A DNA stretch of 64,000 nucleotides from Escherichia coli (GTDB taxonomy: Bacteria; Pseudomonadota; Gammaproteobacteria; Enterobacterales; Enterobacteriaceae). This document shows positions 6,641 through 46,909 of this stretch, in pieces. The stretch lies in the NCBI RefSeq assembly GCF_048403405.1, contig NZ_CP183129.1. The stretch is one strand, 5' to 3'. Both the position numbers and the translations under genes were made by a program. Below the pieces are notes generated by a model. The model saw nothing but the letters and a program-made list of their open reading frames with translations, was not told the DNA's origin and ran no database searches. The number at the start of each line of letters is the position of its first letter. Within the stretch, counting starts at the first letter, position 1.

Positions 6641-6726
6641 ACATTTAAGCTGATGACCACCGCGCTTTTTATTGACCATTTTGCACGCAAACTGGAAAAC
6701 CTGGCGTCGTCATCTATTCTTAAAGG

Positions 6727-6829
6727 GCAAGGCATCTAAGCCTGCATTAATGCCAACTTTTAGCGCACGGCTCTCTCCCAAGAGCCATTTCCCTGGACCG
6801 AATACAGGAATCGTGTTCGGTCTCTTTTT
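6727..6829 (+). ncRNA. sdsR: Small RNA SdsR (RyeB), sigma-S-dependent Hfq-binding sRNA
   Basis: Sequence GCAAGGC...TAAGCCTGCATTAATGCCAACTTTTAGCGCACGGCTCTCTCCCAAGAGCCATTTCCCTGGACCGAATACAGGAATCGTGTTCGGTCTCTTTTT recognised as SdsR, ending in a terminator hairpin plus U-run; lies between yebY and pphA as in K-12. Confidence 0.8.
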
Positions 6830-6963
6830 ATCTGTTAAAAGCCAGAAGCATTCCCTTCGCTGACTTTATAGTCAACCATAACACACACTCTACTGTCTGA
6901 GTCCAGCGTTTTTTAACATTCTTGTTAAGATTATGTGATCTTTAGCGCGGGAGGAAAATATTG

Positions 6964-21672: not shown

Positions 21673-22341
21673 TCCTTCCTCAATCTTGAGTAACCCCGTC
21701 GTTGAAGGGTTACTCAATTCATCCTGATTATACGCACTGCCATGGTGCAACTGCTTCAAATTAAAACTCTGGTCTGACTTCAAATAATTATCATATTATT
21801 TATTTGCGTAACGGGATATCAGAAAAAGATATTTAGCCCATTAATTTATTAGGATGTTTACATCGGATTTGTGATTAAGTGTGGTATTATTTATTAGCGA
21901 AACGTTTCTCTCTTGATTTTTTTGCGCATTCATCAATTTTTCTTATTTTAAATTTACAATACCTTTGGCGATTGACTTCTCTTTGGGGTGATCGATAGCC
22001 GTTAACTGACTGTTTTATGAGAAAAAGTGATATAACTTTTTATTCATTGCATAGCAGAAAATGTGATATTGCACGCACTATGTAATAACTTCTCCCACTG
22101 GCCTGGAACAACTGAACTTATTGAACTATGTTAGAAAATACGTCAGTTTAAGTATCTGCCTGAACTGGCAAGGTTAAGCACAATGATATATCGGCGCGTA
22201 TTCCGTTGCATAAGTGTGCAAAAAAAGTGGAAGACGTATCGAGATTTGTGCGTCTGATCGAGACATGTTTAAAAATGGCTTGCCATAATTAACGTTGTAT
22301 GTGATAACAGATTTCGGGTTAAACGAGGTACAGTTCTGTTT

Positions 22342-22485
22342 ATGTGTGGCATTTTCAGTAAAGAAGTCCTGAGTAAACACGTTGACGTTGAATACCGCTT
22401 CTCTGCCGAGCCTTATATTGGTGCCTCATGCAGTAATGTGTCAGTTTTATCTATGTTATGCCTGCGGGCGAAGAAAACAATCTAA
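22342..22485 (+). CDS. yobF: Small protein YobF, co-transcribed with cspC
   Basis: 47-aa [50 protein letters not shown] ending 12 nt upstream of cspC. Confidence 0.85.
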
Positions 22486-22497
22486 GGAATTTTTCAA

Positions 22498-22707
22498 ATG
22501 GCAAAGATTAAAGGTCAGGTTAAGTGGTTCAACGAGTCTAAAGGTTTTGGCTTCATTACTCCGGCTGATGGCAGCAAAGACGTGTTCGTACACTTCTCTG
22601 CTATCCAGGGTAATGGTTTCAAAACTCTGGCTGAAGGTCAGAACGTTGAGTTCGAAATTCAGGACGGTCAGAAAGGTCCGGCAGCTGTTAACGTAACAGC
22701 TATCTGA
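22498..22707 (+). CDS. cspC: Cold-shock-domain protein CspC
   Basis: 69-aa [72 protein letters not shown]; RNP motifs. Confidence 0.97.
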
Positions 22708-22752
22708 TCGAATCCACTGATCTGAAGTGTGAATACGCTTCAATCTCGCTAT

Positions 22753-22780
22753 AAAGCCTCGTCGAATGCGAGGCTTTTTA
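22753..22780 (+). terminator. Rho-independent terminator of yobF-cspC
   Basis: AAGCCTCG-tcgaat-GCGAGGCTT followed by TTTT. Confidence 0.75.
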
Positions 22781-22872
22781 CTTTGCTTTATCTTCGCTCC
22801 AGTCGTTCGGATATTTGCCCGCCGCGTGATTCGCGTTACACTTGCGGCCTTTAGTATCCTGCCGGAGTTGTC

Positions 22873-39400: not shown

Positions 39401-39982
39401 ATGGCGGTTCAAAAGAACGTTATCAAAGGCATACTGGCAGGTACGTTTGCGCTAATGCTGAGCGGTTGTGTCACTGTGCCGGACGCCATTAAAGGCAGCA
39501 GTCCCACGCCGCAACAAGATTTAGTTCGGGTGATGAGTGCGCCGCAGCTGTACGTTGGTCAGGAGGCACGCTTTGGTGGCAAAGTGGTTGCGGTACAAAA
39601 CCAGCAAGGGAAAACCCGCCTGGAAATTGCTACCGTACCGCTGGACAGCGGAGCCAGACCAACTTTGGGGGAACCTTCACGCGGGCGCATTTATGCCGAT
39701 GTGAACGGTTTTCTGGACCCGGTAGATTTCCGTGGACAACTGGTTACGGTAGTTGGGCCAATCACCGGTGCGGTTGACGGCAAAATCGGCAACACGCCCT
39801 ATAAATTTATGGTGATGCAGGTAACGGGTTACAAACGTTGGCATTTAACCCAGCAGGTGATTATGCCGCCTCAGCCGATTGATCCATGGTTTTATGGCGG
39901 TCGTGGCTGGCCCTATGGCTACGGTGGATGGGGCTGGTATAATCCCGGCCCCGCGAGAGTACAAACTGTTGTAACTGAATAA
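39401..39982 (+). CDS. yeaY: Slp-family outer membrane lipoprotein YeaY
   Basis: 193-aa ORF with lipoprotein signal (LSGC). Confidence 0.85.
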
Positions 39983-40002
39983 TTGCTTGTTTTTAAAGAA
40001 AA

Positions 40003-40029
40003 AGAAACAGCGGCTGGTCCGCTGTTTCT
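40003..40029. promoter_or_regulatory. Perfect 11-bp inverted repeat (AGAAACAGCGG-ctggtc-CCGCTGTTTCT) containing a FadR-operator-like CTGGTCCGCTGTTT; also a candidate yeaY terminator stem
   Basis: Palindrome read directly; similarity to the FadR consensus ANCTGGTCNGAYNTGTT; position upstream of fadD. Confidence 0.45.
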
Positions 40030-40097
40030 GCATTCTTACGGTAAAGATAAAAATAAATAGTGACGCGCTTCGCAACCTTTTCGTTGGGTAATTATCA

Positions 40098-40114
40098 AGC
40101 TGGTATGATGAGTT
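40098..40114 (+). promoter_or_regulatory. FadR operator-like site AGCTGGTATGATGAGTT in the fadD promoter
   Basis: Match to the FadR consensus about 75 bp upstream of the fadD TTG start; fadD repression by FadR is established. Confidence 0.5.
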
Positions 40115-40186
40115 AATATTATGTTAACGGCATGTATATCATTTGGGGTTGCGATGACGACGAACACGCATTTTAGAGGTGAAGAA

Positions 40187-41871
40187 TTGAAGAAGGTTTG
40201 GCTTAACCGTTATCCCGCGGACGTTCCGACGGAGATCAACCCTGACCGTTATCAATCTCTGGTAGATATGTTTGAGCAGTCGGTCGCGCGCTATGCCGAT
40301 CAACCCGCGTTTGTGAATATGGGGGAGGTGATGACCTTCCGCAAACTGGAAGAACGCAGTCGCGCGTTTGCCGCTTATTTGCAACAAGGGTTGGGACTGA
40401 AGAAAGGCGATCGCGTTGCGTTGATGATGCCTAATTTATTGCAATATCCGGTGGCGCTGTTTGGCATTTTGCGTGCCGGGATGATCGTTGTAAACGTTAA
40501 CCCGTTGTATACCCCGCGTGAGCTTGAGCATCAGCTTAACGATAGCGGCGCATCGGCGATTGTTATCGTGTCTAACTTTGCCCACACTCTGGAAAAAGTG
40601 GTTGATAAAACCGCCGTTCAGCACGTAATTCTGACCCGTATGGGCGATCAGCTATCTACGGCAAAAGGCACGGTAGTCAATTTCGTTGTTAAATACATCA
40701 AGCGTCTGGTGCCGAAATACCATCTGCCAGATGCCATTTCATTTCGTAGCGCCCTGCACAACGGCTACCGGATGCAGTACGTCAAACCCGAACTGGTGCC
40801 GGAAGATTTAGCTTTCCTGCAATACACCGGCGGTACCACTGGTGTGGCGAAAGGCGCGATGCTGACTCACCGCAATATGCTGGCGAACCTGGAACAGGTT
40901 AACGCGACCTATGGTCCGCTGTTGCATCCGGGCAAAGAGCTGGTGGTGACGGCGCTGCCGCTGTATCACATTTTTGCCCTGACCATTAACTGCCTGCTGT
41001 TTATCGAACTGGGGGGCAGAACCTGCTTATCACTAATCCGCGCGATATTCCTGGGTTGGTAAAAGAGTTAGCGAAATATCCGTTTACCGCTATCACTGGC
41101 GTTAACACCTTGTTCAATGCGTTGCTGAACAATAAAGAGTTCCAGCAGCTGGATTTCTCCAGTCTGCATCTTTCCGCAGGCGGAGGGATGCCTGTTCAGC
41201 AAGTGGTGGCAGAACGTTGGGTGAAACTGACTGGACAGTATCTGCTGGAAGGTTATGGCCTGACCGAGTGTGCGCCGCTGGTCAGCGTTAACCCGTATGA
41301 TATTGATTATCATAGCGGTAGCATCGGTTTGCCGGTGCCATCGACGGAAGCCAAACTGGTGGATGACGACGACAACGAAGTACCACCGGGTCAACCGGGT
41401 GAGCTTTGTGTCAAAGGGCCGCAGGTGATGCTGGGTTACTGGCAGCGTCCGGATGCTACCGATGAAATCATCAAAAATGGCTGGTTACACACCGGCGACA
41501 TCGCGGTGATGGATGAAGAAGGATTCCTGCGTATTGTCGATCGCAAAAAAGACATGATTCTGGTTTCCGGTTTTAACGTCTATCCCAACGAGATTGAAGA
41601 TGTCGTCATGCAGCATCCTGGCGTACAGGAAGTCGCGGCTGTTGGCGTACCTTCCGGCTCCAGTGGTGAAGCGGTGAAAATCTTCGTAGTGAAAAAAGAT
41701 CCATCGCTTACCGAAGAGTCACTGGTGACTTTTTGCCGCCGTCAGCTCACGGGCTACAAAGTACCGAAGTTGGTGGAGTTTCGTGATGAGTTACCGAAAT
41801 CTAACGTCGGAAAAATTTTGCGACGAGAATTACGTGACGAAGCGCGCGGCAAAGTGGACAATAAAGCCTGA
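40187..41871 (+). pseudogene. fadD: Long-chain acyl-CoA synthetase FadD, interrupted by a -1 frameshift in a G6 run at 41011-41016 (premature stop at 41060-41062)
   Basis: Two ORFs (40121-41062 and 41056-41871) in different frames each encode a contiguous part of FadD (...[13 protein letters not shown] | [22 protein letters not shown]...); restoring one G rejoins them. TTG start at 40187. Confidence 0.85.
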
Positions 41872-41917
41872 GCGTTAAGTCAGTCGTCAGACGCCGGTTA
41901 ATCCGGCGTTTTTTTTG
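41830..41917 (+). ncRNA. sroD: sRNA SroD, derived from the fadD 3' end; boundaries approximate
   Basis: Established sRNA annotated at the fadD 3' end / fadD-rnd intergenic region in K-12, ending at the fadD terminator; placement from recalled annotation. Confidence 0.35.
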
Positions 41918-41918
41918 A
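41889..41918 (+). terminator. Rho-independent terminator of fadD
   Basis: ACGCCGG-ttaat-CCGGCGT followed by T8. Confidence 0.8.
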
Positions 41919-41940
41919 CGCCCACTAAAGAGAATACAAT

Positions 41941-43068
41941 TTGAATTACCAAATGATTACCACGGACGATGCGCTGGCTTCTTTGTGTGAAGCCGTCCGT
42001 GCCTTTCCGGCGATAGCCCTGGATACTGAATTTGTTCGTACGCGCACCTATTACCCGCAACTGGGTCTAATTCAACTTTTCGATGGCGAGCATCTGGCGC
42101 TAATTGATCCTCTCGGGATCACCGACTGGTCACCGCTGAAAGCGATCCTGCGCGATCCGTCCATCACAAAATTTCTCCATGCAGGCAGTGAAGATCTGGA
42201 AGTGTTCCTCAATGTCTTTGGCGAATTACCACAACCCCTGATTGACACGCAAATCCTTGCTGCCTTCTGCGGACGCCCGATATCATGGGGTTTCGCTTCC
42301 ATGGTGGAAGAGTATTCCGGCGTTACGCTGGACAAGAGTGAATCGCGCACCGACTGGCTGGCCAGACCGCTGACCGAACGTCAGTGTGAATACGCAGCGG
42401 CGGATGTCTGGTATCTGTTACCGATCACCGCAAAGCTTATGGTAGAAACGGAGGCCTCCGGCTGGCTACCTGCGGCGCTGGATGAATGCCGCCTGATGCA
42501 AATGCGTCGTCAGGAAGTCGTTGCACCGGAAGATGCCTGGCGTGATATCACCAATGCCTGGCAGTTACGCACACGCCAACTGGCCTGTCTGCAACTGTTA
42601 GCCGACTGGCGACTGCGCAAGGCGCGGGAGCGCGATCTGGCGGTGAACTTTGTCGTGCGCGAAGAGCATTTGTGGTCGGTAGCGCGTTATATGCCGGGAA
42701 GTTTAGGCGAACTGGACAGCCTGGGCTTATCCGGTAGCGAAATCCGCTTTCACGGTAAAACGCTGCTGGCGCTGGTGGAAAAAGCGCAGACATTGCCGGA
42801 AGAGGCCTTACCGCAGCCGATGCTTAACCTGATGGACATGCCGGGTTATCGTAAAGCGTTTAAAGCGATTAAGTCGCTGATTACTGACGTGAGCGAAACG
42901 CACAAGATCAGCGCCGAATTGCTGGCATCGCGTCGGCAAATCAACCAACTGCTGAACTGGCACTGGAAACTGAAACCGCAGAACAATTTGCCGGAGCTGA
43001 TTTCCGGCTGGCGTGGTGAGCTGATGGCGGAAGCATTACACAATTTATTGCAGGAATATCCGCAGTAA
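41941..43068 (+). CDS. rnd: Ribonuclease D
   Basis: 375-aa ORF starting at TTG (rnd is known to use UUG); DEDDy exonuclease plus HRDC domains. Confidence 0.95.
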   Translation: MNYQMITTDDALASLCEAVRAFPAIALDTEFVRTRTYYPQLGLIQLFDGEHLALIDPLGITDWSPLKAILRDPSITKFLHAGSEDLEVFLNVFGELPQPLIDTQILAAFCGRPISWGFASMVEEYSGVTLDKSESRTDWLARPLTERQCEYAAADVWYLLPITAKLMVETEASGWLPAALDECRLMQMRRQEVVAPEDAWRDITNAWQLRTRQLACLQLLADWRLRKARERDLAVNFVVREEHLWSVARYMPGSLGELDSLGLSGSEIRFHGKTLLALVEKAQTLPEEALPQPMLNLMDMPGYRKAFKAIKSLITDVSETHKISAELLASRRQINQLLNWHWKLKPQNNLPELISGWRGELMAEALHNLLQEYPQ

Positions 43069-45298: not shown

Positions 45299-46909
45299 TC
45301 AGTTGTCGCCTTTGAATACGGTTCCCGCAGGGAGCACTGGCGTTTTTTCCGGGGCTTCAACCGGTGTCTGCGGGAGATAATGTTCAACTTGATGAGCCGG
45401 AATGTCGGCGTAATCCTGTTTCAGCCAGCGAATAAAGCCACCGACTTTCACCAGTAAAATAACGAGGAAGGGCAGGGCTGTAAGTACCACAGTGGTTTTC
45501 ATGGTTTCCAGCGACGCGCCAGTAAATAAGATAGACAGTGGAATCAGGGTGATAACCACGCACCAGAACAGGCGAAGAGCACGGTCAGGGTCGTCACCTT
45601 CCTTAAGATTTCGCGTACTGGTCGCCGCCATGGTGTAGGCCACCGCATCCATATGCGAGGCAAGGAAAATAATCATCACGCCCAGGTATGCGGCGAGGAA
45701 CAATTTACCGGCTGGCAACGACATCAGAACTTGCTGCACAGCTGTCTCGCCGCCCAGTGTTTCCAGCACCTGTGGGACGTTGATTACGCCATTGATAAAC
45801 TGGTGAATGGCATAGCTTTCCATTACGCCGAAGAAGAACCAGCAACCGACGGTGCTGCCGAGGATCAGTCCCCAGATAACTTCTTTAATCTTACGACCGC
45901 GTGAAACGCGTGTGACAAACATTGCTACGCCAGGGGTGTATGAAATCCACCACAGCCAGTAGAAAACGGTCCAGTTGCGGGGAAATGAACCATCGCCAAG
46001 CGGATCGGTGAATAAGCTCATTTGCAGGAAGTTTTGCGTGGTCAGGCCGATGGCATTGATGATGCTGTTGGTAATAAATTCGGTTGGACCGACAATCAGC
46101 ACCAGTAATGGCAGCAGGAACGCGCCCCAGCCAACCATTTTGCTCAGACGTTGCAAACCGTTGTTGATACCAATCCACGAGCTTAGGCAAAAAATGCCGC
46201 CGGAAAGCAGGATCACAAATGCCTGCACGGTGAAGTTATCGGGTAAACCGGTCAGCGCGGAAAGCCCACGAGTAAAGGTTGCTGCGGTAACAACAAGGGA
46301 AATGGTCAGCGCACCGACAGTGGCGATCAGGAACATCAAATCGACCAGTTTTCCCCACGGGCCTTGCGGGCGAACGCCGGTAATCGCGGCAATAATGCCG
46401 GAAAGGCTCAGACCTTTGTTTTTCCGCACATGAAAGTGATAAGCCATGATTAATGAGGCCAGCGTATAAGTTGCCCAGGCGCTGATGCCCCAGTGGAAGA
46501 AGGAGTAAGGGACGCTAAATTCGAGTGCCTGTTGTGAACGCGGTGCGATATTTAATCCAGGTGTTTGATAATAATAGGCCCATTCAGCACCCCCCCAATA
46601 AAGCGTAGAAGAACCTAAACCGGCACAAATAAACATAAACAGCCAGGAGAGCGTGCTGTATTCCGGTTTTCCTTCTCCAAGACGAATATTGCCGTATTTA
46701 CTGGTGGCTAAATAAATCACCAGTCCCATTGCCAGCAAAACCAATACCTGTACGGCGGAACCTAACGTACGCGTAACAAAAGTGTATATTGCGTTGGCCG
46801 CGTCGGCCGATTGTTGTGGGAAAAGGCTTAATGCAGCTGCGATGAAAAGAATGGCCACCAGGCTGATGCTTATCAGCGGCACATCTTTTTTCTTAACATT
46901 GCTCATCAT
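45299..46909 (-). CDS. yeaV: BCCT-family transporter YeaV (start codon uncertain)
   Basis: Long polytopic ORF with BCCT-family features, upstream of yeaW-yeaX. Confidence 0.85.

Follow-up and report, generated by a model that had tools for sequence, protein, structure and literature searches.

Does a frameshift in fadD change the small RNA SroD, which is encoded at the 3' end of the same gene? The question is raised by a stretch of 64,000 nucleotides from Escherichia coli (contig NZ_CP183129.1), here called the window, in which the fadD sequence lacks one base upstream of sroD. Taken as a whole, we consider the following explanation moderately probable. SroD is most likely a 3' piece of the fadD mRNA, its DNA appears to be shared with the promoter and leader of the downstream gene rnd, and its level is probably reduced if the deletion is real.

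The Rfam scan of the whole window produced a single sroD match. It lies at 41830-41915 on the plus strand, covers positions 1-86 of the 86 positions of the model RF00370, and scores 115.2 bits against a gathering threshold of 50 (E = 1.4e-22). A preliminary description of this DNA had placed SroD at 41830-41917, over the last ~40 nt of fadD and its terminator. The full-length match falls inside this interval, not elsewhere, and agrees with it within 2 nt. SroD is made up of the final 42 nt of fadD, counting the native stop codon TGA (41869-41871, the end of the fadD CDS in K-12, 1888061), and 44 nt of the 3' UTR. No base differs from K-12 MG1655 between 41772 and 41936. The 102-nt segment 41824-41925 has at least 99% identity in 5,413 of 5,422 complete E. 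coli genomes, whereas the 2-kb fadD region reaches 99% identity in just 473 genomes. The family model also matches 19 of 20 loci taken from other genera, and the layout, with sroD at the 3' end of fadD on the same strand and rnd downstream, is alike in orthologous loci. SroD was reportedly first described by Vogel et al. in 2003, and the K-12 gene is EcoCyc G0-9384. The RefSeq records that we examined carry no sroD annotation. The segment 41830-41915 is the already known enterobacterial small RNA gene sroD, complete and in its usual place, and not a new kind of element.

The RNA ends in an intrinsic terminator on the plus strand (41889-41916) with a 9-bp GC-rich stem, a 5-nt loop and a run of eight T. 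The hairpin occupies positions 41889-41911 and the T-run positions 41909-41916. It closes both fadD and SroD, and also serves as the hairpin and U-run of the rnd leader. Term-seq in three growth conditions mapped 3' ends on the K-12 minus strand at 1888017, 1888018 and 1888020 (PMC7815308). These correspond to positions 41915, 41914 and 41912 of the window, all within the U-run.

The fadD sequence upstream is broken. According to its translation and the list of open reading frames, the 5' fragment (40187-41062, plus strand) has a TTG start followed by 277 native and 14 out-of-frame codons, and ends at a premature TAA in the shifted frame (41060-41062, plus strand). Alignments to CFSAN061763 and MS 69-1 place the one-nucleotide deletion in a run of six G at 41011-41016, on the plus strand, where the relatives have seven. 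If the missing G is put back, the 561-aa FadD is restored. From the premature stop it is 767 nt to the SroD 5' end and 809 nt to the normal stop, and thus the distance of ~800 nt given previously is confirmed. The intervening 767 nt of fadD mRNA (41063-41829, plus strand) are predicted to be free of ribosomes; the native C-terminal frame is otherwise open and intact to 41871. Pfam PF00501 (AMP-binding) is recorded for a product identical to the truncated FadD. According to Pfam, the truncated protein would retain a partial AMP-binding domain, and the remainder of this domain together with AMP-binding_C falls in the downstream frame. Programmed frameshifting or transcriptional slippage would hardly rescue FadD, as six G form no known slippery site and the relatives plainly have seven. 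The sroD sequence itself is untouched by the frameshift.

It is a real possibility, somewhat short of an even chance, that the deletion arose in sequencing or assembly, as an error in a run of seven G. The real fadD would then be intact, and SroD would be as in other E. coli. The change is a one-nucleotide contraction in the longest G run of the region. The 66-mer with six G occurs in one of 5,401 complete E. coli genomes, in which fadD is multiply broken; the other 5,400 have seven G. The exact frameshifted product, of 313 aa, is encoded in public assemblies from at least seven unrelated sequencing runs, and the contigs that encode it have other homopolymers contracted too, for example A7 to A6 at the position corresponding to 39383; one of them contains five single-base deletions. 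Thus the G7 run is a recurrent site of sequencing error. On the other hand, this one G is all that distinguishes the window, over 25 kb, from the closest of 5,426 complete RefSeq E. coli genomes, MS 69-1, TUM1226 and OX030728. Over 49.8 kb the comparison with MS 69-1, in which fadD is intact, shows three SNPs and the G indel and nothing else. This span contains 17 homopolymers of 7 nt or longer, all in agreement with MS 69-1, and hence the assembly of the window is not generally prone to homopolymer errors. Moreover, natural loss-of-function slips are known in such runs. The sequence alone does not separate a real, recent, lineage-private mutation from an isolated residual error.

The consequences of the frameshift, if it is real, depend on where the RNA comes from, and here we favour its origin from the fadD transcript. 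SroD has been treated as processed from the FadR-repressed fadD transcript (PMC8313858). A consensus scan for sigma-70-like sites found one plus-strand site with at least 9 of 12 matches in the region 39900-42100. This site, TTAATA and TATCAT separated by 18 bp (40113-40142), probably belongs to the fadD promoter region. It also has the top score in 40050-40190 in a position-weight scan (8.70, the 99.96th percentile), which used textbook hexamer frequencies and is therefore approximate. The sequence of this region is the same in MS 69-1. Between it and rnd no further plus-strand site with at least 9 of 12 matches was observed. Nor did we find a conserved promoter upstream of 41830, as the best position-weight scores there are 2.3 to 3.1 and the synonymous positions vary freely. 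GAGAAT (41825-41830) was considered as a -10 box of SroD and rejected: it scores 2.74, has no -35 box, and its T is replaced by C in Klebsiella, Raoultella and Cedecea.

The 86-nt SroD would thus be a 3' piece of the fadD mRNA. The intrinsic terminator of fadD sets its 3' end, in agreement with the mapped ends. Its 5' end would be produced by an RNase E-like endonucleolytic cut at GAA|UU, 39 nt before the fadD stop. Indeed, the 5' end GAA|UUA matches the RNase E cleavage motif RN|WUU as given in PMC7398697. Both the literature and the failure to find a strong or conserved promoter upstream of 41830 speak for the processing model, short of proof. The Term-seq counts are similar across the three conditions, with no obvious fit to strict control by FadR and CRP, and their normalisation is not evident.

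If the deletion is real, there are two routes by which SroD would probably fall below its level in a sister strain with intact fadD. Firstly, Rho-dependent termination, faster decay or both could act across the 767 ribosome-free nucleotides. Secondly, FadD activity would be lost, and FadR would then remain bound at the fadD promoter, as expected from what is known about the fad regulon.

Rho polarity changing SroD production was the proposal of the preliminary description, and its two factual premises stand: SroD lies at the 3' end of fadD, and ~770 nt upstream of it are untranslated. The mechanism has a direct experimental precedent in Vibrio. In Vibrio cholerae, mutation of the oppB start codon or early stops lower OppZ, bicyclomycin restores it, and Rho termination is put at or near oppB codon 115; CarZ is abolished, likewise via Rho, by stop codons in carA or carB (PMC7398697). 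According to the same study, the effect of stop codons on 3' UTR-derived small RNAs varies with the position of the stop relative to the Rho site, and predicting rut sites from sequence is difficult (PMC7398697). The stretch 41063-41829 is G-rich (G 28.7%, C 22.2%), and a strong rut site is not evident. The C/G ratio exceeds one in 71 of the 768 segments of 78 nt within the untranslated stretch, with one region of C excess at about 41100-41180. The highest ratio, 1.40 at 41100-41177, is below the 90th percentile of the whole window, 1.50. In the list of Rho termination regions of K-12, fadD, rnd and sroD are all missing; fadD is translated in K-12. Rho action on the untranslated stretch is possible, with no pointer to it in the sequence, and as the stretch is G-rich, the effect of this route may be weak.

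There are two further circumstances that bear on the first route. Candidate sites of re-initiation are a TTG at 41056, which overlaps the premature stop (UUGGUAA), and an ATG at 41188 preceded by GGAGG. Translation restarting there to some extent could conceivably leave the 3' part of fadD covered by ribosomes. Further, RNA without ribosomes is more open to RNase E. The action of this enzyme could make the yield of the terminator-protected fragment lower or even higher.

The second route follows from the regulation of fadD. Acyl-CoA, which is made by FadD, releases FadR. Thus without FadD there is no acyl-CoA, FadR would stay on the fadD promoter, and the amount of RNA from this promoter would be low. 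This route is independent of Rho and was absent from the preliminary description. As for the outcome, we consider a measurable reduction of SroD, given a real mutation, to be a substantial possibility rather than the expected result.

We then turn to the DNA that encodes SroD. The last 399 codons of fadD from 74 Enterobacteriaceae sequences form a gapless alignment with mean pairwise nucleotide identity of 82.6%. Only 9 of the 348 degenerate codons with conserved amino acids have no synonymous variation, and eight of these nine are clustered at 41824-41862: CGA GAA, CGT GAC GAA, AAA, and GAC AAT. Among the 399 codons, variation is lowest in the 12-codon segment beginning at 41833: 0.43 bits, compared with a mean of 1.05 (SD 0.15). 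This value was reached in one of 5,000 permutations. CGA is a rare arginine codon, and codon preference therefore does not account for its invariance, seen in 74 of 74 sequences. The first of the conserved blocks, CGAGAA-NNN-CGTGACGAAGC (41824-41843, plus strand), spans the SroD 5' end, and its codons CGA, GAA, CGT, GAC and GAA are invariant in all 74 sequences.

The invariant positions have the geometry of a promoter. The candidate -35 box of rnd, GTGACG (41834-41839, plus strand), is situated within both SroD and fadD, and its six bases are invariant in the 74 sequences. The candidate -10 box GACAAT (41857-41862, plus strand) follows after 17 bp, with base conservation of 0.93, 1.0, 0.97, 1.0, 1.0 and 1.0, and implies a transcription start at about 41869-41871. 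This pair is the best sigma-70-like site in 41700-41900 (position-weight score 7.15, the 99.85th percentile of the window). Both invariant blocks coincide with the hexamers, and the spacer between them shows normal variation. Zhang and Deutscher are said to have described a hairpin and eight U between the rnd promoter and the ribosome-binding site. As the fadD stop is just 18 nt upstream of the hairpin, the rnd promoter must then fall in the last codons of fadD, inside SroD. We give a slightly better than even chance to these hexamers being the rnd promoter, with transcription starting at about 41869-41871. With its own promoter, rnd would be largely unaffected by the frameshift. The candidate promoter leaves unexplained the invariance of CGAGAA (41824-41829), which is directly upstream of the mature SroD 5' end; this hexamer may act in the processing of the RNA or serve as an upstream promoter element. 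The sharp constraint at 41824-41862 with its promoter-like geometry is the only result here that goes beyond textbook knowledge, and it is most likely a rediscovery of the rnd promoter.

The terminator is conserved as a structure. In an alignment of 67 sequences its helix is paired in 97.2% of cells, with compensatory changes in two pairs: in Kluyvera a GC pair has become AU, and in Cedecea a CG pair has become UA. The gene rnd (RNase D; 41941-43068, plus strand) begins with TTG, as in the K-12 annotation. We collected 80 Enterobacteriaceae loci via RNase D. The TTG start of rnd is kept in the loci compared, with GTG in a few, and the order of fadD, hairpin, U-run and TTG-initiated rnd is retained in nearly all loci inspected. 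According to reviews, translation of the rnd mRNA begins at UUG, and the mRNA carries a U-rich translational enhancer (PMC5934652, PMC7769764). In the light of this work, the terminator hairpin and U-run would serve also as the leader and translational enhancer of rnd.

No comparable conservation is seen in the rest of the SroD fold. The three 5' helices of the minimum-free-energy structure of the E. coli RNA are paired in 66-74% of cells of the same 67 sequences. The 5' part of this fold is therefore unsupported across genera, and any structural claim is confined to the terminator. This agrees with another reading of the locus, to which we give slightly less than an even chance: the 86-nt RNA may be a functionless, terminator-protected remnant of fadD decay, its conservation may come from the FadD C-terminus, the rnd promoter and the shared terminator and leader, and a change in its level would be without consequence. 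Pairing and covariation back the terminator helix only, and the invariant positions fit a promoter and extend, at CGAGAA, upstream of the mature RNA. No target or phenotype has been reported: sroD was not involved in the fadD-linked phenotype studied in PMC5874903, and its function is listed as "unknown" in PMC8313858. However, the Rfam consensus leaves the first 14 nt of SroD unpaired, and these nucleotides are invariant, as expected of a seed, and positions 31-54 contain an (ARN)n motif of the Hfq type (PMC5575007). Besides, the absence of a known target is not the absence of function.

The check for an independent promoter in the fadD 3' region, suggested previously, gave a conserved promoter-like pair at 41834-41862, but inside SroD, and none is conserved upstream of 41830. 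The strong non-coding constraint at 41824-41862 and its pair of invariant hexamers at a spacing of 17 bp, the placement of the rnd promoter upstream of the hairpin, as reported in older work, and hence within the SroD region, and the similar Term-seq counts in LB and glucose minimal medium would speak for SroD as a primary transcript of its own promoter or an attenuated rnd leader, with fadD translation irrelevant. This is nevertheless improbable, since the hexamers are downstream of the SroD 5' end and would give from about 41870 a terminated leader of ~46 nt and not the 86-nt RNA, the sites upstream of 41830 score low with freely varying synonymous positions, and the literature describes SroD as processed and FadR-dependent (PMC8313858). 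The version with an attenuated rnd leader fails for the same reason, as the only conserved promoter-like pair is inside SroD.

Processing from the fadD mRNA, the reading that we prefer, would make SroD similar to other small RNAs derived from 3' ends. CpxQ and SroC are also processed (type II) 3' UTR-derived RNAs that share the terminator of the parental gene. Like OppZ and CarZ (PMC7398697), SroD lies at an mRNA 3' end, overlaps the last codons, ends in a Rho-independent terminator, has an RNase E-like motif at its 5' end, and would depend on the parental promoter. The likeness to type II small RNAs is drawn from position, motif and literature. Unlike RNAs of the OppZ and CarZ type, SroD has its 5' end inside the coding sequence, and not past the stop codon, and it shares sequence with the candidate promoter and the leader of the gene downstream.

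In comparison with K-12 SroD (RF00370), the RNA sequence, context and terminator are the same, and only the fadD frameshift upstream, at 41011-41016, sets the two apart. The situation resembles classical Rho-dependent nonsense polarity in that a premature stop leaves 767 nt untranslated upstream of the feature. It differs from it in that the stretch is G-rich with one weak region of C excess, and in that the part of the "downstream gene" is taken by an RNA that would be excised from that very cistron. The rnd leader described by Zhang and Deutscher in 1992, a GC-rich hairpin and eight U that act as translational enhancer of a UUG-initiated gene (cited in PMC5934652 and PMC7769764), corresponds to the hairpin 41889-41911, the T-run and the TTG at 41941, and is conserved in the Enterobacteriaceae loci compared. 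That work considered the element from the side of rnd; here the same hairpin terminates fadD as well and supplies SroD with its 3' end.

We tentatively suggest, with rather less confidence than in the explanation as a whole, that the FadD C-terminus, the 5' half of SroD and the rnd promoter all share the last ~45 nt of fadD in a triple overlap, or that the frameshift, if real, is a natural stop-codon experiment lowering SroD via Rho or decay together with permanent repression by FadR, or both. If the triple overlap is true, it would explain the eight invariant synonymous codons, and much of the conservation of the "sroD family" across genera would be conservation of the RNase D promoter and leader. 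The importance of these observations is mostly in annotation, and it would be useful to record sroD at 41830-41915. If the frameshift is real, the strain, an isolate close to human strains of the ST69 type, would be devoid of long-chain fatty acid activation, and its fad regulon would not be inducible. In this case it would also offer a ready test of whether a small RNA derived from a 3' end needs translation of the parental ORF, the principle having already been shown in Vibrio. The junction of sroD, fadD and rnd carries overlapping signals, and mutations aimed at one of them, such as deletions of fadD, hit the others.

Synonymous variation is restricted at the 3' end of fadD, where the coding sequence runs into the small RNA SroD. 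Eight of the nine codons that are synonymously invariant among the last 399 codons of the gene, in 74 Enterobacteriaceae sequences, fall within positions 41824-41862 of the window. The invariant stretch includes CGAGAA (41824-41829), situated immediately 5' of the start of mature SroD. The candidate rnd promoter hexamers inside SroD do not explain the invariance of CGAGAA.

The annotation of this junction varies among records. The start of rnd is the ATG at 41953 in PGAP-annotated genomes, yielding a protein of 371 aa, and the TTG at 41941 in the K-12 annotation, yielding 375 aa. No sroD annotation was found in the copy of NC_000913.3 or in any PGAP record examined.

Two of the four differences between the window and E. 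coli MS 69-1 touch G/C homopolymers, namely the fadD change and the SNP at 46590. The latter, one of three SNPs, replaces CAACCCCCC by CACCCCCCC with formation of a new C7 run, and is synonymous in yeaV (GGT to GGG, minus strand). The G6 sequence of fadD is shared with only one complete RefSeq genome, that of E. coli B1.H1.18 (locus L003:1641-3391). There, the annotation marks fadD as incomplete and as carrying a frameshift, and its C-terminal part forms an ORF of its own, so either the gene is disrupted more than once or the assembly is noisy.

The comparison with E. coli CFSAN061763 revealed further differences. The dgcP gene of this strain is annotated as frameshifted (L006:31419-32443), having one A fewer at the AAA corresponding to position ~51635 of the window; in MS 69-1 dgcP is annotated as intact and has the same sequence as the window at this site. 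An IS200C transposase lies between htpX and yebQ in CFSAN061763 (L004:18240-18698, corresponding to ~17.4-18.3 kb of the window). It is absent both from MS 69-1 and from the window, which align here without gaps. SNPs between CFSAN061763 and the window are numerous at 20.1-31.6 kb and few elsewhere, a distribution that suggests a recombination patch.

Besides sroD, the window has Rfam matches to SraC/RyeA (minus strand) and SdsR/RyeB (plus strand), which overlap each other within 6689-6833, and to the cspA thermoregulator (22322-22782, plus strand). The last overlaps a short gene that is annotated as yobF in relatives, and just downstream of it is a csp gene, which carries the label cspE in those genomes.

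In the Citrobacter amalonaticus group, the gap between fadD and rnd contains an insert of ~165 nt (L016:2270-2470; loci L026 and L014 are also listed). L014 instead carries an additional hairpin between the fadD stop codon and the terminator, and it scores below the Rfam sroD threshold. In L016 the ~165-nt insert is flanked by the hairpin sequence ACGCCGGGTGAATCCGGCGT, one copy on each side. The insert starts with the inverted repeat GAGGTGATC...GATCACCTC and looks like a small mobile element.
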